DNA of 38,221 nucleotides, filler included, from Thelocarpon superellum (GCA_026025795.1; 12 parts of 12 records of this genome joined end to end with filler, not necessarily neighbours in it); one strand, 5' to 3'. Shown: positions 5,862-34,899, counted from the whole stretch's first letter. Program-made: numbers and translations. Notes: generated by a model from the sequence alone, not told the origin.

Positions 5862-7271
5862 ATGACGACTGAGGTACGTGATTCCGCTAGATGGTCTCCT
5901 TTCCATCCCTCCACCCTACCTCGCGGCCGGCCCCGTGCGTTCCCGCTCCGGAGTGGTGGATTCCCGGCCCAGATCATCTCACTTTTGCCCCTCCTGTCAC
6001 TCGGCCGCTATCGAAACCGCTTACTGACGATGATCCCACAAACAGCGCGAGAGGTATCTAGGACCACGAACGTCCTCGTCCCCAATCCCACGTTGACCGT
6101 CTCGCAGTAAAACCTTCCTGGCTCGGCTATGCGAGCAGGCGGAACGCTACGATGGTGAGTCTCGGAGACGGAGAAACGTGGGAGCGATGGCGGATGCTGA
6201 TGCTGGTTCGATGCAGAGATGGTCAATTTCATGAAGGTGGGTGTTGTCCCCACACGTCCGTTACCCGTGCCACTAAGATACTGATGATGTTGCGATACGC
6301 AGGAGGTGGCAAAGGTACGGCCGCATGCTCATGGCATATGATCCCCCACCACGGCGGCGCCTCTAACGGGTCCCTTTGCAGCTGAGCGGTGAACTGACCG
6401 TGGATGAGCGGAATCTGCTGTCCGTGGCGTACAAGAACGTGGTCGGCACCCGCCGTGCCTCTTGGCGCATCATCTCGTCGATTGAGCAGAAGGAGGAATC
6501 CAAGGGCTCAGACAAGCACGTTGGCACCATCCGCGACTACCGCCAGAAGATCGAGACAGAGCTCGAGAAAGTGTGCCAGGATGTGCTTGATGTGCTGGAC
6601 GAGTCTCTGATCCCCAAGGCTGAGTCGGGCGAGTCCAAGGTGTTCTATCACAAGATGTGAGTGTCGGCAGGATGGCTAGTCCTGATCTCGACGCCGCCCA
6701 CGACCCATGTTCATGCGTAGCCGTACAGGAAGGGTGATTATCACCGCTATCTCGCCGAGTTTGCGTCGGGCGAGAAGCGCAAGGTCGCTGCCACGGCCGC
6801 TCACGAGGCTTACAAGGTCGGTCACCTCGTCCGGTCTCTTCAGCTATTCCGTACCGCCATGGTGCTGACTGCGCCTAGAACGCCACCGATGTGGCGCAGA
6901 CCGAGCTCACGCCGACGCACCCGATCCGCCTAGGCCTCGCGCTCAACTTCTCCGTCTTCTACTACGAGATCCTCAATTCCCCCGATCGCGCGTGCCATCT
7001 CGCCAAGCAGGCCTTTGACGACGCCATCGCCGAGCTCGACTCGTTGTCGGAAGAGTCTTACCGTGACAGCACGCTCATCATGCAGCTCCTCCGAGACAAC
7101 CTGACCCTGTGGACCTCGTCCGATGGTGCCGAGCCCGAGACGGCCGCCGCCGCGCCCGCGGAGCCGGCCAAGGAGGCCGATAAGCCTGCGGAGCCGGCCG
7201 AGGCTAAGCCCGAAGAGCCGGCGGCCGAGGCCAAGCCGGAGGCGGTGCCGGCGCCTGCGCCGGAGTCCTAG
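5862..7271 (+). CDS. artA: 14-3-3 protein (ArtA/Rad24/Bmh type), 8 coding exons
   Basis: Exons 5862-5873, 6046-6053, 6108-6154, 6217-6236, 6303-6314, 6382-6657, 6729-6816 and 6879-7271 give [55 protein letters not shown]...[20 protein letters not shown]...[17 protein letters not shown] plus an Ala/Pro/Glu tail. Confidence 0.96.
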
Positions 7272-7712: not shown

Positions 7713-7813
7713 GGATGGATGCCACGCGTTACGGACATTCAAAGCCGGTGGAAAGCAGGCGCTAGCTAACCACCCACCTCGTCTCTACAATCATCGTTCT
7801 ATCCGTTCTTTCA

Positions 7814-7988
7814 CATCCTCATTCTCATCCTCACCTTCATCTTCACCCTCATCCTCATCCTCATCCTCATCCTCATCCTCACCCTCATCCTCACCCTCAT
7901 CCTCATCCTCATCCTCATCCTCATCCTCATCTTCACCCTCATCCTCATCCTCATCCTCATCCTCATCCTCATCCTCATCCTCATCCTC
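7814..7988. repeat. (TCCTCA)n hexanucleotide microsatellite
   Basis: About 175 bp of near-perfect ATCCTC units with ACCCTC/ATCTTC variants; overlaps the TRL1 stop codon. Confidence 0.97.
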
Positions 7989-10455
7989 GCTGCTGCATGA
8001 TCGCGCGAACACTCCCGTCCAAGATGACAGTCTTGTCCAGGGGCAGCTCACCGATCCCACTGTCCTCTCCGCTCCCTCGTTCCAACCAGGCCGCAAGCAG
8101 CTTGTTGCTCTCCTTGGGCTTGATGTCCGGAGAGGCGGTGCCAATGGTCACATGTGCCATGGCGTTGGTCGTATGAAAGCGCTTCTCGTCCGCATCCAGC
8201 AGTCGCGCCACGATGCACATGAGTCGCTCGTCCCACACCACCCGCTCGAGCTGCACCCGGCACTCGCCCAAGGACGGATCGATGGGCATGGATCCGGCCG
8301 GGCGTCCAGCCGCCTCGGACGCGAGCGTCTCCGTGTAGAGCTGCGTGAACTTCCGCCACGCGTCTGGGAAGGCGGTGCTGTTGGCGCGATGGACCAGCGT
8401 GACGTGGAAGCTCGCCTGGATCCGGCGCCCTTGCTGCAGCACGCGGTAGAACCGGGACACGTCCGCTGGCTGCCCGTCGAACAGGGTCTCGAGCGTGTTG
8501 AGCACGGCCATGGTGGGCAGTTGGACGCAGAAAAAGTCGACCTTGCCATCTTTGCGCTTCGGCTCGCGCGGCGGAGCCGCGCCACGGTTGGGCAGCTGTC
8601 GTTTCTTGTCCCTGGGCGAGGCCAGCGCATGCTTCACGTCCGGTCGATATTCTTGCAGCGCGGCCTCGAGCGCTCGGTCGAGCGATGCGGACGAGGGCAT
8701 GTCCACGATGAGCTTGGGATAGAGGGCGTGAAGTTGCCTCACCACCGTCTCCAGATTCTGGCGCGAGGAAGCCAGGACGTCGAGGTCGATGATGGCGTCG
8801 AACCCGTCGTCCGGGTGATTGTGCGGCGTCACTGGCTGAAAGCGATGCAGGAAGCCTTCCATGATGCCCACAACCTTCTCCGGCGCCTCACTCCCCGCGT
8901 GGATGGTCTGGTGATTGTCGCCGCGAGAGAGCACACGGTCTCGCGTGACCTTCCGGATCTGATCGTAATATCGCTGTCGGCCCTCCCCCGCCTGCTCGTG
9001 CACATAATGCAGCGCCACCAGCCGCGGGTCGGGAAGGCGAAGGCGAACGTCGTGAATGATCTGCTCACGTTCACGTTTCTCGGAATTGTTGCGATCCGCC
9101 ACCACCGCCGGCGAAACCTGCAATGCTTCACGGACCTGCTCGGCGAACCGCCGTGGTCGATTGCTGCCCACGATGTTGTCATTCTGCACGTGGCCCCACC
9201 CAAAGAGGTGGTGCAGGGCCACGGCCACCGTCGTTTTGCCACAGCCGATCGTCGCCACCGGAACCAGCACGACGTCACCCGTCACCTCTAGAGCCTCGTC
9301 GCCGGACTCCTCGTCTTCCTGTCGAATGACGTCGGCTCCCCGGAGGCCTTTCTCCTGCAGGAAGCCGTCCCGCATGGCGATGATGCCATGATTGCGATTG
9401 AATTCGTGGACCAGCTTGGGATTCTTGGCCAGCCGTCGTTTCGCGTAGAGGATATACTCATCCGTGATCCTCTTGTGCTTCTTGTACTTTGCCGGCCGTC
9501 CCGCAATCACAGCCCTGGTCACTTCGCGCCATTGTCGGTACATAAGGTAGGGCTCCTCGAATTTGTACTTGAAGAACCAGTCCGTCCATGCCCCGCGAGC
9601 ACCGTCGCGCGCTTGGCATCGGATCACGAAGCCCTCCACGTCCTTCCCCTCCCACGCACCCGTCTCGCCCACACCCTCCAGAAAGTCGCGAACGGCGCCA
9701 ATGTCCTCCTTGATCAAGTACTCTGCCTTGCGGAATCCCCACGCGTCGGCAAAGGCGTGCACCAAGTGGCCCGGATACGTCGCAAATTCAGGCAGGTTGA
9801 GGTTGATACCATGCAGATAGAGGCCGGCGTGGTCCGCGTCGTAGGTGAGGACATGCTCCTCAAACTCGTCGTCGCAGAGCTCGGCCACAGCGGTGGCGTT
9901 CATCCGCCGCAGTTGTCGCGCCAATTGCTCCCTCGTCTTGCCCACCGCAGCCAGGTGCCGGTCGACCCAGCGCTCGCCAGCCACGGCGTGACTGAGTCCG
10001 TCATTTGACCCGGCGCCGGTGGAGTGTTTGCTACAGATGAGGAGAGCATCATTGGGAAGGGCCGACAGGAAGATGATGCACCCATTTTCCTTCACGCTCA
10101 GCTCGTACGGGCCCCGCGTGTTTTCCTCGATGTTGGCCCAGCTGGTCTTGGCCACCTCGTCCGTGTTGAAGAACTTGTCGTATCCTCGCACCACAATCTC
10201 CGGGTGAGGCCGAGCGAGCGTGAAGAGTCCGCGCGCATAGGTGGGCAGGTCGTCGAGCTTGTAGTCCCAATCTCGGAATCGCCATGAATCGACCGTGACG
10301 CCATCGAGCCCTGGTGCGGGAAAGCTGCCTTTCTTGCAGCTGAACGACTTCGCTCCGTGCGTCGCCTTCTTTGCATGGGCTTCTAGGCTCTGGATGAGCC
10401 GACTGACCTCATGAGCGTTTTGCGGCGCAAACGGCGCCTCGTGTGTCCCCGCCAT
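7981..10455 (-). CDS. TRL1: Fungal tRNA ligase Trl1 (ligase-kinase-cyclic phosphodiesterase), single exon, 824 aa
   Basis: Ligase motif I (ELSVKENGCIIF), RGYDKFFN, EGFVIR, FFKYKFEEPYLMYRQWRE; kinase P-loop (VATIGCGKTT) and ADRNN; two 2H HxT motifs (FHVTL, AHVTI). Confidence 0.96.
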   Translation of the reverse strand: MAGTHEAPFAPQNAHEVSRLIQSLEAHAKKATHGAKSFSCKKGSFPAPGLDGVTVDSWRFRDWDYKLDDLPTYARGLFTLARPHPEIVVRGYDKFFNTDEVAKTSWANIEENTRGPYELSVKENGCIIFLSALPNDALLICSKHSTGAGSNDGLSHAVAGERWVDRHLAAVGKTREQLARQLRRMNATAVAELCDDEFEEHVLTYDADHAGLYLHGINLNLPEFATYPGHLVHAFADAWGFRKAEYLIKEDIGAVRDFLEGVGETGAWEGKDVEGFVIRCQARDGARGAWTDWFFKYKFEEPYLMYRQWREVTRAVIAGRPAKYKKHKRITDEYILYAKRRLAKNPKLVHEFNRNHGIIAMRDGFLQEKGLRGADVIRQEDEESGDEALEVTGDVVLVPVATIGCGKTTVAVALHHLFGWGHVQNDNIVGSNRPRRFAEQVREALQVSPAVVADRNNSEKREREQIIHDVRLRLPDPRLVALHYVHEQAGEGRQRYYDQIRKVTRDRVLSRGDNHQTIHAGSEAPEKVVGIMEGFLHRFQPVTPHNHPDDGFDAIIDLDVLASSRQNLETVVRQLHALYPKLIVDMPSSASLDRALEAALQEYRPDVKHALASPRDKKRQLPNRGAAPPREPKRKDGKVDFFCVQLPTMAVLNTLETLFDGQPADVSRFYRVLQQGRRIQASFHVTLVHRANSTAFPDAWRKFTQLYTETLASEAAGRPAGSMPIDPSLGECRVQLERVVWDERLMCIVARLLDADEKRFHTTNAMAHVTIGTASPDIKPKESNKLLAAWLERGSGEDSGIGELPLDKTVILDGSVRAIMQQRG

Positions 10456-10606
10456 GGCGGCTGGAGCGCTGAATATCAGGCCTGAGATTGCACCAGCCCT
10501 GATGCGAGAACTTCAATGAAGATGCTCCCATAGGTAGAACTGTAGTAGGGCAAGTGACTAGGACAAACGTTCTGGATGTCCTGGGCGCGGTGGGAGGAAT
10601 ATGGAA

Positions 10607-10732
10607 GATGGGAGACAGGAGATGGGAGACAGGAGATGGGAGACAGGAGATGGGAGACAGGAGATGGGAGACAGGAGATGGGAGACAGGAGATGGGAGAC
10701 AGGAGATGGGAGACAGGAGATGGGAGACAGGA
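10607..10732. repeat. 14-bp tandem minisatellite (GATGGGAGACAGGA) x9, running into the contig end
   Basis: Nine identical units with no spacers. Confidence 0.97.
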
Positions 10733-13622: not shown

Positions 13623-14272
13623 CGCTCCGATGCGACAAGAGGTGTGGAGTGTGGAGTGTCTGTTCCTTTCTGTCCGAACGCCTACACTCGCCCTAATGAC
13701 CTCACGGTCTTTTCTTGGTCCCGTCAGCTAGGGGATTTGTCTGGTGTCTTTTTGGTCCTCCTTTACGTCCTTTCCTTTTGGTGTACATCTTTCATTTCTT
13801 GGCCGGGGACGGGGTCGACGCAGGAGACGGAGAGACGGAGAGACGGAGAGCTTCGTTGCATGCATCCTCCCATCCCCTCGCGTCCCCCATCCCCGATCGC
13901 AAGTATCAACCAGCATGCGTACAGAAGACGGGGCGGCGGAATACCGTCGATTCTTTGTTATTGGGAAGGGAAGAAATGAGTTTGGTGCGCGGTCGCTGGC
14001 ATTCCGTCTTTTTAGAAGGCACGACCGAGATGGCTTATCGTCCTCNNNNNNNNNNNNNNNNNNNNNNNNNNNNNNNNNNNNNNNNNNNNTTAATTAATTA
14101 ANNNNNNNNNNNNNNNNNNNNNNNNNNNNNNNNNNNNNNNNNNNNCGGAGGAAGGTCTCGAAGAACCTCATTCGAATCGCTTTGGTGACCTTGTTCAGGG
14201 TGTGGATGCTCTTCTTATACCCGTCTAAGAGTGTTGCCAGCTTAGCGAGGCGGTCCTCATGTATTTTCGTAA

Positions 14273-14362
14273 TGTAGGAATCAGAGCTGAATTGCTAATC
14301 TACGCGTAGTCGGGATAGTGATAGGAGTGGGCACGTGACCAGGTCACGTGCACGCTCCTACA
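14273..14362 (-). mobile_element. 90-bp non-autonomous element, copy A (MITE or very short solo LTR)
   Basis: Termini TGTAGGA...TCCTACA (7-bp TIR); TSD GTAA at 14269-14272 and 14363-14366. Reverse complement differs from copy C at 6 of 90 positions. Strand is given relative to copies B and C. Confidence 0.9.
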
Positions 14363-14950
14363 GTAAGAGGTTTGCATAGTCGCAGGGGGCAAGTCTTGAA
14401 ATACCTTTGGCAATCGAGACCGCTATATGAGGGACCCCCGGACAGAATATCGAGCTACTTATTGTGGAGTGGGAGTGCCCTTGAACATATCATACTCGAT
14501 ATGCAGATTGGTGTGGGGTGAGTCAAGGTATCTGTAGAGACGCGAGCAATGACGTAGAAGGAGTCCCCAAGCAACAAGCAATATATCATTGTTGGGCATG
14601 CCCCCCAGGTAAGCAGGATAGTTTGAGATCAGCATTTGGCGTACTCCGAGAACTATCCATAGCGAGAGGGATAGTAGCAGAGGGCGCATCCCGATATCTG
14701 GGCGCCCGAAATCATAGGCGGAAAGGGCACGCCATGGTATCATACCAGCTCATCACGTCCGAAGAGAGGAACAGGGCAGTCTGGTATCAGCGACGAGCCA
14801 TTGCTTTTCCATTCACGCACATACACCGAGCAGCCGCGCTTGACTAGATGCAACCTCTAGCTCCGGCAGGTCAATTTCGATACTGGATGGCGGCCTCGAT
14901 GGCAAGGAAAGATCCAACACAGGTCCAACTCTGCTATTCCGCTGTAATTG

Positions 14951-15747
14951 CTACCTTCCACCGTGGCGCACTTCTCTCGCAAACCAGAAATCCATCTGGT
15001 ACTCGGCATGATAAAGACACTCATACATGCCTTTCAGGCACAGATATTGCTCTTCGGCGTCTAGGAGAAAGTTACAGGATTTGCAGACGTCCCAATGCTC
15101 GGGATGCCAGCTAGAGAATTTCCAGTCGATGATGGCGGCGACATGCCCGTCCTTGACCATGACATTATGCAAGCCGCGATCGCCGTGGCTGAAGACAATA
15201 CGGTGGTCGGTGCGGTGTAGAGCGGCATACGTCTCGCGGTTATAGAGCGTGATAGATGGCCGTAGCTGCTCAAGCTGCCACTCATTGAATTCCAGCTCTA
15301 ACGCGAATGGACCAGCTAACACGGCCTGTTGCCTTCGGTCGGTCGCTGGTTCACCATCGATGGCGCCAATGAGCGTACTTTCGGGACACGGGAGGCGACG
15401 CATCTCGCGAGTGCAGGCTCCCAGCTCGTTGACGATGGTACTCCGTTGTGGTGGAGGAAGCCGATCCCACACCGAGTGGAGCATGTCCCTGTCGATGAAC
15501 TTCATGAGAATGTGACGACAACCCTCCTTCTCGTAGACCCAAGCACCTTTGGCACTAGGACGGTCGTATTCCGTCAAACGCAACGCATCGTCTCCGCCTC
15601 AGCCAGATGAATATTCGGTCCAATCTTGGCCACGACGTTTGTGCCGATTTTGAGCATTTTTCTAGGGCTGCCTCGGAAGCTCTGCAGCGCCGTGGCTTCC
15701 GCCAGGTCGTCGGGGGAAAGCTCCATCGTGCCAGATGTGAGATGCAT
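14951..15747 (-). pseudogene. Aminoglycoside-phosphotransferase/choline-kinase-like (APH, kinase-like fold) pseudogene
   Basis: VVAKIGPNIHLAEAETMRCV*RNTTVLVPKVL(frameshift)VYEKEGCRHILMKFIDRDML...IVFSHGDRGLHNVMVKDGHVAAIIDWKFSSWHPEHWD. In-frame TGA at 15574-15576, a 1-nt frameshift near 15540, and degraded HGDLxxxN and IDWExxGWxPxxWE motifs. Confidence 0.8.
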
Positions 15748-15899
15748 TGGCGTAGAGAGAAGCAAACAGGGTTGGCTAAGGCATCCTTGACGCTGTTCCG
15801 CTGTGCTCCGAGTCAGACTCGGGGTGACGTGACAGCTGAGCTACGACTGCCAGCCTTGGCGGTTCCGAGCTGCTGGCCCTATCGTTACTAACATAGGGC

Positions 15900-15990
15900 T
15901 GCAGGAGCGCGCACGTGATCTAGTCACGTGCCCACTCCTATTACCATCCCAGACTACGTGTAGATTAGCAACTCAGCTCTGATTCCTACA
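15900..15990 (+). mobile_element. 90-bp non-autonomous element, copy B (91 bp)
   Basis: TGCAGGA...TCCTACA; TSD GGGC at 15896-15899 and 15991-15994. Differs from the reverse complement of copy A by 8 transitions and a 1-nt insertion. Confidence 0.88.
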
Positions 15991-18190
15991 GGGCTATGTT
16001 AGAGCTCGCTCGGCGCGTCCACCAGCCGATGGTGGAACTTGAAACGCCCCGCCACTGGACGCATGCTGAGGCGCACCCACCCAAATCCTTCGCCCACCAC
16101 CTACCGCCCGTCCAGCCAATTACCCTGGCAGCGATTAGGCGCGAGCGACCTGCGCCCAATTCTTTATCGTCCACGCCGCAGCAGACATTATGGGATGGAA
16201 ATGATCTGCCACGCATCGACTCGCTTTTAATTAGGCATCCAGAGTGTGTAGCAGATCTATTTGATCTTTGGACAGGATGGTAGGTCATGCGTGGATTTCG
16301 GCTGGGTGCGCGCAGGTGTAGCCACCACGCGCAAACAGCATGAAACCGTCCTAAGGGCAGGTACTCCATCAGTCCATCTTCCACATCTGTGCCAACGATG
16401 TTCCCGTAAAAATGATGCCCCTCCTTCTTCGTTCTTCCATCCAGTGGTCCGCTCGACATGCCGAGGAGATGCTGAGACACACATCCTGCCAAAGGTCGAG
16501 GCGGATGCAAGAGGGGCGGGTCGGAGTGGGTCGAGCACTCCCTCTGCCCTGGCCGTCGCTTCCCCCTCGCCTCTCAGAGCCAGAACGAGACTTCTTTTCC
16601 TGGCCGGCTCGCGACGCCCCGCAACTACTAACTTTGGCCATAGAGCAAGCCGATTCTACAGTAGTGCATGTAGGGCCCCTGGGGAGTCACCCAATCGTGC
16701 CTCCGCCTGGGAAGCAAACGCCAGGTCCTAGATTTGTCGATCGCAGCACCATGTACGAGGACAGAATATACACGAGCGTCAAGTGGTTGGTAGCGATCCC
16801 TGTAAATGGTCCACGTGAATCACGATCGAGACTAGCCACAAGATATCATCAGAAGGAAGACGCCCCCGGTGCTCGCAGGGAAATAGGAGACACGCATCAC
16901 GGCCAGGGGCGGTCCAAGGGCCTTTGAGCTGAAGGGCGTGTCTCTGAGGATCTGGACGTGGAACGTTCTAGTAGATTGTACGCAGGAGAGAGCCCATATA
17001 CTCTCATCCCTCGAGACACCCAAGCCGACGTCATCAATTTTTGGGCTGCAAGTATCACAGGAGCCGGTAATAATAACGGAGGACTTCCCGGCGGAACGAG
17101 CGAATCGTTGCGACGCGAGAAGACGACGTCGTGTAATGGCGGACACACGTGCCGGGAGCACCTCACGTACAATGGCGTTATCCTTCGGTTGACGAAACGA
17201 GAAGCGCGCCAATATACCATCACTCAGGAGCGNNNNNNNNNNNNNNNNNNNNNNNNNNNNNNNNNNNNNNNNNNNNTTAATTAATTAANNNNNNNNNNNN
17301 NNNNNNNNNNNNNNNNNNNNNNNNNNNNNNNNGGACGGCCAGTAAGGGCCCTGTTTAATTTCCCGCCCCCCTTATCCCACGTTGTCGCCTCCCGGAACGC
17401 CAGCGAACATGGGCGTTAAGCTTCAACCCGGGCCGCTATGCAGTCGTCGTCCCCCAGATGCAGGGAGTGGTACAGGGGATCGAGTGACGGAGCACCGCTC
17501 AACGTGCGCTAGGTCCGAAGAACTCCGTGCGAAGACCTTGGTAACTACCGTTCCGTCGTTCTCGTACGATTGTATACACCGTCCTCCCTTTCTCCTCCGC
17601 CCTGGCTCACTACGGCAGTCCTCCTTCCTCCTTCCTCGTCCCCTAGTCCCTCGTCCCGTCACGTCCAGACTGCCCTGGCGCCCAAGGCGGATCGCGCTCG
17701 TGCAGCGTCGGCCAACGTTTGACCGGAATGTGATCCGTGCCATTTTTTCATGGTGTTCGCCTGGGCCGACTAGGATCGTCTGTCGTGCTACTGTACCCCG
17801 TACGCGGCCGAGCACACGCCCGGGCGGGAATCTTGCGGGCCTGATAATATCATGACGTCGGGCTATCACGCAGCTGCCACACGATACGCTGTGTGCTTCA
17901 GCGACCCATTCCTCCCGGCCACGCGATGGGATTGCGGGCGATGGACGAGCAACTATCGATGAGGGCACGAACAAAGTACAAATCGTCATGCCAATCCGCA
18001 CCGCCATTGACCGGGATTCGAGATGGGAGATGATTCATCTGACCCGCCACCGACCCCGCCATCTCCATCGGTGACCCCGACGATCATGAAACCCGTCCGT
18101 CTCTGGTGCGCACGGGCGCACGGGCCAGGATGTTTTGGTTGGCCGGAGCCGATGTGGTCACCGGCCTCGCTGTGGCGAGGCCGGTATCTA

Positions 18191-19787
18191 CTACGTCTTG
18201 CTACGCTGGCCATACGCCTTGGTGGCATAGTCGCCCCCTGTCACGATCAGGTCCTCGGGGCGGTAGTCATGCTTGCCCGTCAGGTAGCTCTCAAGGATGG
18301 CCTTGGTGCCGTTGGCGTACCGCCGCTGCGCGTCCAGCGACGTGCCCGACATGTGCGGCACCATGCCGTTGCCACCGCCAAAGGGATTCTTGGCGTATCG
18401 CAGCGGGTGGTCTTTGGGCGCGGGTTGAGGGAACCACACGTCGCCGCCGTAGCCCCGAAGATGGCCAGTCTTGAGCGCGGCGGCCACGTCTTCTTTGACC
18501 ACGATGGCTCCACGCGCGGTGTTGACGAGCCATGAACCTAGCCGTCCCGTTAGCCCGTGTGCTCGGTGCCCGACCACAGCGCGTGTGAGACGTGGAAGGC
18601 GCACCCTTTTTCATCTTCGCAATCAGTTCGCTGTTGAACAAGCCCCGCGTCTTCTCGTGCAATGGGCAGTTGATGGTCACCACGTCACATTGGCCCAGCA
18701 TCTCCTCGAGCGAGTCGACCCGGCGGCAGCCAATCTCCTTCTCCACCTCGGGTTTGAGCGGCTGGTAATCAAAGTAGAGCAACTCCTTGCATTCGAACGG
18801 CTTCAGCCGACGCAGCACCCGCTCGCCGATGCGGCCCACGGCCACGGTGCCGACCACCTTGTCCTCGAGGTCGAACTCGTTCTTGGCCACCGCGGCCACG
18901 TCCCACTTCCCCGCCTCGATCTGCTCGTGTGCTGGCACGAAGTTACGGACGAGGAGGAGGATAGTCATGACGACGTGCTCCGCCACGGACACGACGTTAC
19001 TTCCCGTCACCTCGGCCACGGTGATGCCTCCATTGGTCTTGTTGGCCGCGTCCAGGTCGACGTGGTCGGACCCGATGCCCGCCGTGATGGCCAGCTTCAG
19101 CTTCTTGGCCTTGGCCAACCGGTCGGCCGTGAGGTATCCGGGATGGAAGCTAAAAGACCGCGGATCAGCCCGGTGGCTCGCCCCGCCGTGCATCGTAGCA
19201 CTCACGGCGTCGTGACGATGACTTCAGAGTCGACCAACTCCTGGTCAAATTTAGAGTCGTCCCCTTCCTTGTCCGATGTCGTGACCAAGGTGTGGCCTTG
19301 CGCCTCGAGCCATTTGCGGATGCCCAGCTCATTTTCCGTCGTGCCTGTAGCCTGTCTCAGCCTTGTGGCTCCCCCCCGCCTCCCCGTCGGTGGCACCCAC
19401 CCAGCAATTCTGGAACTTGCGCCGCGTGCTCCCCACCCTACATCATCGCGGGGCATCAGCATCCAGGACACGTCACAGGGGGCCTTGGTCGTGACTTACA
19501 TCATACAAGACCATCAACACTTTGACCTATCGAAGACGATTCGTTAGCATGATTGCCGGGGCAATTGCGAGGATGCGTTGGGGACCATGACAGGGGAGAC
19601 ATGGTCGCTTGAACGAAAGGCTTCGGACCGAGTGATCGTTCGGCACACTGTACATCCGGACGCCATGGCGCTGGCGGAGCGACGTAGCTCCGAGAGACGT
19701 CCAGGCGGGGAGGGCACGAGCACTCCTGGCATAGAGGCAGGAGGATACGGGGCGCGCCAATCGCGAAACGGAGTGGAGCAATACCAT
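18191..19787 (-). CDS. FDH1: NAD-dependent formate dehydrogenase, multi-exon, with optional mitochondrial presequence
   Basis: [35 protein letters not shown]...TTP|FHPGYLT...[11 protein letters not shown]...[11 protein letters not shown]...NCPLH...VNTARG...[16 protein letters not shown]...[18 protein letters not shown] at 19787. Confidence 0.96.
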
Positions 19788-32494: not shown

Positions 32495-33123
32495 GAAATG
32501 AATGTTGCTCATCCCAGTATCGTCCGAATCCAATCCTTCGTAAGATGTTAGCCTTGCGAAAGGATCTCTGGGCATCCAGGGAAAGTCTTGTCCAAGTAAT
32601 AGCAGGACNNNNNNNNNNNNNNNNNNNNNNNNNNNNNNNNNNNNNNNNNNNNTTAATTAATTAANNNNNNNNNNNNNNNNNNNNNNNNNNNNNNNNNNNN
32701 NNNNNNNNCCTTGGCGCTGTCGCAGCATGGATTCATGGCTGCGTTGATAGGAGACGAGGGGCCATTATCCTGAGGAGGTTTGCGTGGGGAAATGTTTCTA
32801 AGAGGCGACGATGGATGATGGCTTACGGATGGATGGAGACATGGTAAAGGGAGACGGAATGAAGAGTGAAGCGATCTGGACGGGCATGTACGAAGAGCGA
32901 CGATCACAGGAACGAGAACGAGAGCTTCTCGCTGTGTAAAACTAGCGACACGAACGGTTCATTCGTCTACATAACATATACCCGCCTCTTCTTCTTCTTG
33001 TCCCTCTTCTTCCTCTTTCTTAACCTTCTTCGTGCCGTCTCTGTAGCGTAGAAATGATCGCGGAGATCAATACATTACCCTGCCGCTGTGAAGCTCACTC
33101 GTTGATCTGCCAAAACAGACGCT

Positions 33124-33213
33124 TGTAGGAGGGCGCACGTGACTTGGTCACGTGCCCACTCCTACAACTATCCCGACTACGCGTAGATTAGCAATTCAGC
33201 TTTGATTCCTACA
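33124..33213 (+). mobile_element. 90-bp non-autonomous element, copy C
   Basis: TGTAGGA...TCCTACA; TSD CGCT at 33120-33123 and 33214-33217. Lies on a different contig from copies A and B. Confidence 0.9.
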
Positions 33214-34899
33214 CGCTTTGATTTCGGCTAATGAGAATTGTGTAAAGGAGATGCCTTGTGGTATGATCCGTTGCTTCGTTGACAGCTCTATCTCATGATT
33301 CGTCGTCCCTAAATCCACTTCCTGTGTCCACCAATAAAGACACGATGGGGAGAGGATCACGGGATGACCACTTACCAATTCGATTACCAATTCGAGTCTC
33401 AGGAGGGTGTCCCATACCTCCTTACACGATCTAGATAATCACGAACGGCTTCCTCGTAACTCACACCGTGTTTCGACTTGCTGAAAATCATTCCCGAGCT
33501 GATGTTCGAGCGAGTCTTGTCTGTGGCTACTTCAGTAACCGACTCATTCCCTTGTAGCTCGAGCTTCCAGGCTTTGATCGCAGTTTGCCGTCTGCCGTCT
33601 GCCGTCTGCTGGCCAGGACGTGTGAGGGAAATGCCACCAGTGGTCCCATCGGGTTCCTTGAGTGATGCGGGCGCGGATAACGATTTGTGTGATACATGGG
33701 GATTGACTGCAGAGTCGCGGTGGCGATTGACACGACTTCGCCAGGCGTGATGAACAGAGCTGGCAGTTCCAGGAGGTAGAGGCATAGGTCACATGGGTGG
33801 TCATGCAGAGACTTTGCTTCGACCAAGATACCTCCATCACGCCAGGTCCGAAGAGTCCCAAGAGAAGCGTCAGGATATTTGAGATGACTGCTCCGTGGCT
33901 CTACCTAGTCATCGAAAGTCTCTCGTCTCTCGGACTTCCGGAAATAGGGAAACGATGAACGAGGTCCTTCACGCGGCGTGAATAGCGGAGCCATATCCAC
34001 AGCTCATGGAAGTCGGCATGTTTGTGCGGTTCAATTGCAAGGGCATTCCAAATCATGGATAATGAATCAACTACACCGGCCGGCGAAATAGCTGCGCACA
34101 CCCCACTGAAGGGCCAAGACTGACCACCCTCCTGACCGGCCGGTGTTCGAGGGTGCGTTCAAGCAAAGCACGGATCTACAGTACTACTGTACTAGTACGG
34201 TAACTTGATGGTAGAGTTGAGGTTGCGCTGATCGGTATCCGCCGCCTGTAATCATGCCGATCGGGGAAGCCTCCAATTTCTTCCACTTGTTGAGGCCGAC
34301 CGCATGAAGTACAATGATGGGTCACGTGCTTGACCGCCCTAAACACGGATGACTTCCGCGTCCGCGTCCTCGTCCGCGTCAGGTTCCGGGTCCCGGTCGC
34401 GGTCCCGGTCCGGGCACTCGCCGGACCGCGACTATAACCTCGTCAGCGCATTTACCCTGAGTAGCGCCCTTTCCTCCTTCAAATCCTTCTCCAGTTCCTC
34501 CGGAAGACAGTCTCGTAATCATCGGCCTATGTCTTCCCTGAGCTTTTCGGCCCCCCTAGCGCGGCGCCCCCCGTCAGTCACGTCGCTGCCGGCTCGACAT
34601 GCTTGGCACGGGAAGCGTGACCAATCACAGCCTCCTTGTCCTTCAGGTGACTTGCAAGGTGTGGGAGCACGGCTGGCGTCGCTGCCCGCAGCTACTGCGT
34701 AAGATCCCGTCAGATCCAACCAAAGAATGGCCTTCCCTCTTGGCACCCATAAAAGCTAGCAATCGCCGTGGTACTTTCGTACAAAGACGTAATACTCCGT
34801 GGGGGCCGTTGACCAAGACAGATAGGACGGACGAATACAAATCGAACGGGCACCCCCAGAGGTGCACGCCGAGACTTAGACCCAAATATGTAGGCCATC

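Follow-up and report, generated by a model that had tools for sequence, protein, structure and literature searches.

A dispersed 90-bp mobile element with TG...CA ends and 4-bp target site duplications in a fungal genome

Introduction

MITEs of a short, non-coding type are known from fungi, with mimp and Guest as well as the EFT families of Epichloe as examples. The Epichloe elements are short, non-coding and size-homogeneous, lie near genes and remain below the lower size limit of RIP, which is about 400 bp (PMC3227409). Their target site duplications (TSDs) are TA, AT or TWY and, among the families listed, their terminal inverted repeats (TIRs) measure 29-61 bp and the most abundant has 97 full copies (PMC3227409). 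Here and below, statements taken from cited papers refer to excerpts of those papers.

Among transposons moved by enzymes of the retroviral-integrase type, Ginger1 and Ginger2 have TGTNR-type termini and TIRs of 40-270 bp and 50-180 bp, respectively (PMC2836005), and TSDs of 4 bp in Ginger1 and 4-5 bp in Ginger2 (PMC10045372; PMC2836005). The TSD of Ginger1 is CCGG or CCGT in 99% of copies, and the excerpt of PMC2836005 reports this group only from animals. Ginger2/TDD elements prefer the AT-rich target RTATAY, and the sole curated fungal member of Ginger2 is a vestige without TIRs (PMC2836005). Elements labelled as rve-type "Ginger" are ubiquitous in fungi and expanded in Dikarya, where Sola elements are rare (PMC5751038). 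The IS481EU elements of parabasalids, known in the excerpt of PMC10045372 only from Trichomonas and Histomonas relatives, have TGT...ACA termini, TIRs mostly shorter than 50 bp and non-autonomous derivatives; TSDs are of 4 bp in several families and of about 15 or 25 bp in many.

Similar ends are found in LTR retrotransposons: Gypsy LTRs have a TGTNR-type start and TG...CA ends in the form of a short terminal inverted repeat (PMC2836005), and TSDs of 3-6 bp are quoted for LTR elements (PMC10045372). Solo LTRs retain their TSDs, which measure 5 bp in fungal TRIMs and solo LTRs (PMC10886601).

Here, we describe a dispersed element of 90 bp from a fungal genome, which had been noticed in a sequence-only reading and compared there with a Ginger-like MITE and with a solo LTR. 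It is a short non-autonomous transposable element, or a solo LTR, with unusual parameters.

Materials and Methods

The window, that is, the whole stretch of DNA analysed, comprised 38,221 bases and consisted of 12 small contigs of 2.6-3.7 kb each, with a G+C content of 55-62%, joined by artificial spacers in which N runs flank a 12-base linker. Contigs of four public runs (X1, X3, X5 and X6) were aligned to positions 14146-16200 at 80% likeness. In X1, 93% of the sampled words of the contig carrying copies 1 and 2 were present; this run may be the sample behind the window assembly and, if so, is not independent of it. X3 is a moss metagenome from a different study, and X5 and X6 come from other organisms in the same study as X1.

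Results

Copies of the element

The three copies that had been reported on two unlinked contigs were all located where they had been placed (Table 1), copies 1 and 2 on the contig at 14146-17232 and copy 3 on the contig at 32709-35470. Pairwise identities were 82/91, 84/90 and 79/91 (87-93%); the upper end of the 90-93% claimed in the sequence-only reading was borne out (84/90), but the lowest pair (79/91, 87%) fell below that range. Overall, the pairwise differences amounted to 21 transitions and 4 transversions. In a three-way alignment with 40-base flanks, 78 out of the 90 positions of the element were invariant, versus 11 out of the 80 flanking positions; the similarity thus ends exactly at TGYAGGAG... 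and ...GATTCCTACA.

The left ends read TGTAG in two of the three copies and TGCAG in copy 2, and the right ends read CTACA in all three. The description of sharp TGTAGGA/TCCTACA ends with a 7-bp TIR therefore stood as regards the sharp limits, and as a whole for copies 1 and 3, in which the perfect TIR measured 7 nt, but not for copy 2, which starts with TGC and has a perfect TIR of 2 nt. Over the first 20 nt, matches were found at 9-10 positions.

As had also been claimed, each copy was flanked by a perfect direct repeat of its own (GTAA, GGGC and CGCT), which was exact in all three cases. These repeats were exactly 4 nt long in every copy, the register failing at 3, 5, 6 and 7 nt. In the window, a 4-nt match at the same spacing occurred at 195 out of 36,154 positions (0.0054), so that the probability for all three copies is about 1.6e-7. 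Coding capacity was absent, in agreement with the sequence-only reading, with at least one stop in each of the six frames of all three copies. Apart from self-hits of the internal palindrome, a profile search built on the three copies revealed no further copies in the window, and a 10-mer scan found no partial copies or fragments there, including at contig ends.

Table 1. Positions of the element copies, their flanking duplications and their foldback halves in the window.
Feature	Position	Strand	Length or sequence	Observation
Copy 1 of the 90-bp element	14273..14362	-	90 nt	alignment; empty-site contigs in X3 and X1
Copy 1 TSD, left	14269..14272	.	GTAA on + strand	4 letters fit either side of empty-site joint
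Copy 1 TSD, right	14363..14366	.	GTAA	flanking repeat and empty-site joint
Copy 1 foldback half	14320..14362	-	43 nt	DNA fold -15.3 kcal/mol, z -3.5; arms 16/20
Copy 2	15900..15990	+	91 nt	starts TGC; one extra A
Copy 2 TSD, left	15896..15899	.	GGGC	exact flanking direct repeat
Copy 2 TSD, right	15991..15994	.	GGGC	exact flanking direct repeat
Copy 2 foldback half	15900..15942	+	43 nt	DNA fold -13.8 kcal/mol, z -2.95; arms 14/20
Copy 3	33124..33213	+	90 nt	alignment
Copy 3 TSD, left	33120..33123	.	CGCT	exact flanking direct repeat
Copy 3 TSD, right	33214..33217	.	CGCT	exact flanking direct repeat
Copy 3 foldback half	33124..33166	+	43 nt	DNA fold -19.5 kcal/mol, z -5.1; arms 18/20

Internal foldback and palindromes

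The left 43 nt of each copy form a foldback with an internal repeat of the end motif, a feature that the sequence-only reading had overlooked. Read from its outer end, the foldback has the end motif and a 3-nt spacer, then a 9-nt arm with CACGTG and its complementary arm on either side of a 3-nt loop, and finally, after a further spacer, the right-end motif repeated internally. For each of the three copies, none of 200 shuffles folded as well. The internal end motif was intact in copy 3 (…CTCCTACA), where it still ends in CA, and the foldback half of this copy looks like a complete mini-element; the motif was decayed in copies 1 and 2 and in the majority letters of the family, as deduced from contigs of the public runs. 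The depth data were considered for a stand-alone 43-bp mini-element, which was set aside: the bins were too coarse and the palindrome aligned twice.

The right 47 nt contained a 10-nt palindrome around ACGCGT and the terminus TCCTACA. Among the 15 CACGTG sites of the window, 6 were located inside element copies, two per copy (14332-14350, 15912-15930 and 33136-33154). Moreover, 2 out of the 13 ACGCGT sites of the window were found in copies 1 and 3 (14302 and 33179, respectively), the site of copy 2 having been lost by a C-to-T change. We take these two palindromes to resemble bHLH/Cbf1-type and MluI-box sites, respectively.

Empty site, haplotypes and abundance in public runs

Empty sites in other reads, which the sequence-only reading had proposed to look for, were found for copy 1. 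The joint, 14268->14363, skips 94 bases (90 + 4), and the 4 letters fit either side of it. In X3, the empty-site contig measured 375 nt; of the letters flanking the joint, 0/123 differed on one side and 2/93 on the other. In X1, one contig (n = 1) exhibited the same joint, at a depth of 78.6 versus 143 for the shared flank; its shorter side comprised 26 letters, which is under the 31-letter rule. The empty site of copy 1 is precise and holds a single copy of the TSD.

Two haplotypes were observed in X1 (14409-14584), with depths of about 33 and 80 and differences at 7 out of 122 letters. The allele that lacks copy 1 is that of the second haplotype, and it agrees with X3 at 14409 and 14415. Together, the empty site and the diverged haplotypes identify copy 1 as an insertion polymorphism between diverged haplotypes. 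The presence of two haplotypes in X1 suggests that the sample was diploid, hybrid or heterokaryotic, or else a mixture of strains.

The alignment to 14146-16200 retained 512 contigs of X1. In the bin lying wholly inside copy 1, the summed word depth of this run was 95751, versus about 125-143 in single-copy bins (about 700-fold); this is in line with the high copy number suspected from the three copies of the window, although summed word depth is not a strict copy number. In X3, the corresponding values were 315 on the element and about 3.4 on its flanks. Summed word depth being distinct from strict copy number, these values suggest that the family has copies in the order of hundreds.

In addition, contigs of X1 with loose ends were found at the limits of the element: among the positions listed, 6 out of 6 (7, 14, 18, 5, 5 and 5 contigs, 54 in total) were 1-3 nt from an element end. 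The positions listed were 14272/14273, 14362/14363, 15903 and 15990, of which 15903 lies 3 nt inside the element, copy 2 having C for T. At the positions listed, the flanks of these loose ends agreed with their consensus at only 0.42-0.59, indicating diverse flanks. X5 yielded no contigs on 14146-16200 and X6 a single one, away from the element (15081-15139), which does not by itself prove absence from these organisms.

Target sites

In the reconstructed targets, 24 out of 44 positions were symmetric for copy 2, 22 out of 44 for copy 3 and 14 out of 44 for copy 1, chance being about 11. The symmetry at copies 2 and 3 agrees with a DDE enzyme acting as a symmetric multimer. At copy 2, the target (15888-15899 + 15991-16002) was an 18/20 palindrome with 9-nt arms, centred on the TSD; it may reflect a preference for symmetric targets or be what is left of a further small foldback. 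Among the aligned contigs, the plurality flank letters were CTAG on both sides at copy 1 and ATAG on both sides at copy 2; these letters, taken at the level of the consensus, weakly hint that the 4-bp rule applies to other copies as well and that palindromic targets are possible.

Host and gene context

The host is a fungus, and probably an ascomycete. The gene content of the window was that of an ordinary fungal genome, including a three-domain fungal-type tRNA ligase, for which the nearest protein clusters were mostly from Ascomycota, as well as a 14-3-3 protein, the C-terminus of CRM1, TAF7, OPA3, an amino-acid permease, a 2-hydroxyacid dehydrogenase and an APH-family kinase-like gene. The 2-hydroxyacid dehydrogenase gene (18194-19223) and the 14-3-3 gene (6367-7268) each comprised two reading frames, which fits short fungal introns. 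None of the 150 ORFs of the window (at least 97 aa) matched a transposase, integrase or reverse transcriptase family.

Copies 1 and 2 lie in opposite orientation, with 1537 bp between them, and enclose the APH-family gene, which is on the minus strand. Copy 2 was located about 155-175 bp upstream of the likely ATG of this gene, in the promoter region, and copy 1 about 590 bp past its stop. A composite transposon formed by copies 1 and 2 around the gene was rejected, as the outer flanks differ (GTAA and GGGC) and each copy has its own TSD. The surroundings of copy 3 contained no ORF with a family match.

Other repeats were also observed in the window. About 11 tandem copies of a 14-nt unit (10578-10732) reach a contig end, and this array is probably the reason why the assembly broke there. 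A 23-nt unit is repeated four times in tandem near another contig end (20303-20393). Finally, a long repeat of the CATCCT type with 6/12-nt units (7766-8022) gives a His-Pro repeat when read on the plus strand, whereas the minus-strand reading is an acidic run of Asp and Glu. This repeat is located at the 3' (downstream) end of the tRNA ligase frame, which is on the minus strand (7984-10512), and overlaps no more than the last residues of that frame.

Searches for described relatives

Exact-pattern scans with two parts of the element returned no loci in collections of metagenome, prokaryote-genome or viral contigs, and a blastn search of copy 3 against plasmids returned no match. Four 16-letter words of the element did not occur in the literature text searched, and no such family was described in the literature searched on Ginger, MITEs, Ascomycota, short LTRs and fungal TRIMs. 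The searches, which covered contig collections, plasmids, Rfam and literature, gave no known match.

Discussion

The repeat described here is a mobile element, as seen from its sharp ends, 4-bp TSDs, one insertion polymorphism, high abundance and heterogeneous flanks. That its copies are independent insertions, as the sequence-only reading had held, is confirmed by the unlike TSDs and by the precise empty site of copy 1 in X3, a run from another study. The differing 4-bp duplications, together with the precise empty site, require an enzyme capable of making cuts with a 4-bp stagger in targets of varied sequence and of attaching the defined element ends to them, a requirement that excludes hairpin/HUH, rolling-circle and tyrosine-recombinase mechanisms.

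The same observations bear on explanations without transposition by such an enzyme, namely a regulatory or structural repeat spread by gene conversion, an artefact of assembly or contamination, or a hairpin-dependent or tyrosine-recombinase element (IS200/605-like, Helitron, Crypton or Starship-derived). The strong subterminal hairpin would suit them, and the palindromic motifs are presumably of the kind bound by transcription factors, but the 4-bp repeats differ among copies, the empty site is precise, the family was found in runs of two studies, and there was neither an Rfam match nor a tRNA-like part; taken together, we regard these explanations as very improbable. Hairpin/HUH elements, Helitrons and tyrosine-recombinase elements were each rejected on account of the three different 4-bp duplications. 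A SINE was likewise rejected: ARAGORN predicted no tRNA or tmRNA genes, Rfam gave no matches at its gathering thresholds, no tail was present and the TSD was fixed at 4 bp.

We favour, with about even confidence, a non-autonomous element of the MITE type, moved by a DDE enzyme resembling retroviral integrases. TGT...ACA ends combined with a 4-bp TSD are the joint signature of the integrase-like DDE clan, which comprises Ginger1 and Ginger2, IS481EU and the integrases of LTR elements. As in MITEs, the copies are short and non-coding (90-91 nt, with stops in six frames in all three) and bordered by a TSD of fixed length whose sequence differs per copy, 4 bp in each of the three and present once at the empty site; the three copies measure 90, 91 and 90 nt. 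Moreover, the foldback resembles a pair of TIRs placed back to back, an arrangement unexpected inside an LTR, and this repetition of the end motif within the left 43 nt makes derivation from a TIR transposon more probable.

On the other side, the perfect TIR of the whole element, 7 bp or, in copy 2, 2 bp, is shorter than usual in MITEs and of the kind typically seen at LTR ends, and there is no autonomous partner among the 150 ORFs of the window. The described relatives also fit in part only. TGTNR termini and a 4-bp TSD, as in Ginger1 and Ginger2 (PMC2836005), were found here (TGTAG in two of the three copies, TGCAG in copy 2 and CTACA in all three). However, the Ginger label of the sequence-only reading fails if strict membership of Ginger1 or Ginger2 is meant, both on TIR length (7 bp) and on target preference (0 of 3 sites), when compared with the values in the excerpt of PMC2836005. 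Unlike Ginger1, with its CCGG or CCGT duplications, its TIRs of 40-270 bp and its reports from animals only, the element is flanked by GTAA, GGGC and CGCT, 0 of 3 being of that kind; unlike Ginger2, with TIRs of 50-180 bp, it has TIRs of 7 bp, or about 20 bp when the foldback arms are counted, and 0 of the 3 reconstructed sites fit RTATAY (PMC2836005). IS481EU shares with it the TGT...ACA termini, the short TIRs, the non-autonomous derivatives and, in several families, the 4-bp TSD, but it is reported, in the excerpt of PMC10045372, from parabasalids only, and the TSDs of about 15 or 25 bp seen in many of its families are absent from these three copies. With the Epichloe MITEs, the element has in common its short, non-coding and homogeneous form, its position near genes and a size below the RIP limit; it differs from them in TSD and TIRs, and it is apparently several times more abundant than the 97 full copies of the most abundant family listed (PMC3227409).

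An alternative that we consider possible, but distinctly less than evenly probable, is that each copy represents a solo LTR, or an LTR of a TRIM, left by a retrotransposon with exceptionally short LTRs of about 90 bp, which was inserted by its integrase and then lost its interior by LTR-LTR recombination between the TSDs. TG...CA ends, a short inverted repeat and a fitting TSD length were all found here: the ends, the 7-bp terminal inverted repeat and the TGTNR-type start follow the Gypsy LTR pattern (PMC2836005), the 4-bp TSD is within the 3-6 bp quoted for LTR elements, which also weighs against a reading of these ends as those of a MITE (PMC10045372), and TSDs persist around solo LTRs (PMC10886601). 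The diversity of the flanks and the high copy number would fit equally well. In addition, the haplotypes with and without copy 1 differ nearby at 2/93 to 7/122 letters, so that there was time enough for an LTR element to collapse into a solo LTR. However, 90 bp is under the usual LTR sizes, even if very short LTRs of about 80 bp exist. Furthermore, recombination between 90-bp repeats should be inefficient, so that hundreds of solo LTRs would imply many full-length copies. Reverse transcriptase, integrase and gag were absent from 150 ORFs on 12 small contigs, on which the element also occurred without a direct pair or an internal region. The sole pair on one contig is not an LTR pair, being inverted and having unlike TSDs. 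Finally, LTRs are not known to contain a 43-nt foldback in which the end motif recurs. Fungal solo LTRs and TRIMs thus resemble the element in their TG...CA ends, short terminal inverted repeat, retained TSD and dispersed, abundant copies (PMC2836005, PMC10886601), but according to the excerpt of PMC10886601 they differ in their 5-bp, rather than 4-bp, TSDs, their longer LTRs and the lack of an internal foldback.

The transposase might also belong to a DDE superfamily unrelated to integrases, the TG...CA ends then being coincidental; candidates with 4-bp TSDs are AcademX, Sola and MuDR-like elements. Such TSDs are possible in the Sola superfamily. They are also compatible with the 3-4 bp of AcademX and the 4-10 bp of IS256/MuDR elements (PMC10045372), and Academ is present at low copy in most fungal taxa (PMC5751038). 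We nevertheless consider this quite unlikely, as TGT...ACA ends, when combined with a 4-bp TSD, mark the integrase-like clan (PMC2836005, PMC10045372) and Sola is rare in Dikarya (PMC5751038).

For an integrase-like MITE, the following course may be proposed. The transposase would be encoded elsewhere in the genome and supplied in trans; it would join the TG...CA ends to target cuts with a 4-bp stagger, thereby inserting the 90-bp unit, and gap repair at the staggered cuts would leave the 4-bp duplication. The element itself may have originated from a 43-bp foldback in which two inverted ends of about 20 bp, each with CACGTG, are separated by a 3-nt loop. The right end of this foldback would then have decayed in most copies, and a new TCCTACA end, 47 bp downstream, would have been recruited. 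We infer which type of enzyme acts, that the 90-bp unit moves directly as such and that it originated from a foldback.

Taken further, the observations can be joined into a broader picture, which we put forward as speculative and unlikely to hold in all its parts: this would be the first abundant integrase-like MITE (of the Ginger/IS481EU type) active in a filamentous ascomycete, derived from a 43-bp foldback of two 20-bp TIRs by recruitment of a new end, small enough to escape RIP, and scattering a fixed cassette of paired CACGTG palindromes and one ACGCGT palindrome into promoters (for example, about 160 bp upstream of the APH-family gene), where it could rewire regulation.

If the copies are solo LTRs, few known LTRs would be as short, and the existence of a lineage of fungal LTR elements with 4-bp TSDs would be indicated. 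If they are MITEs, enzymes of the integrase type would be active in cut-and-paste transposition in a filamentous fungus, and the family would be among the smallest and most abundant non-autonomous elements of fungi. Its length of 90 bp is far below the RIP limit of about 400 bp (PMC3227409), which could explain how it multiplied where larger elements were destroyed. As its insertions vary between closely related haplotypes, the family readily provides markers for strains, and the position of copy 2 in a promoter region makes any effects on neighbouring genes accessible.
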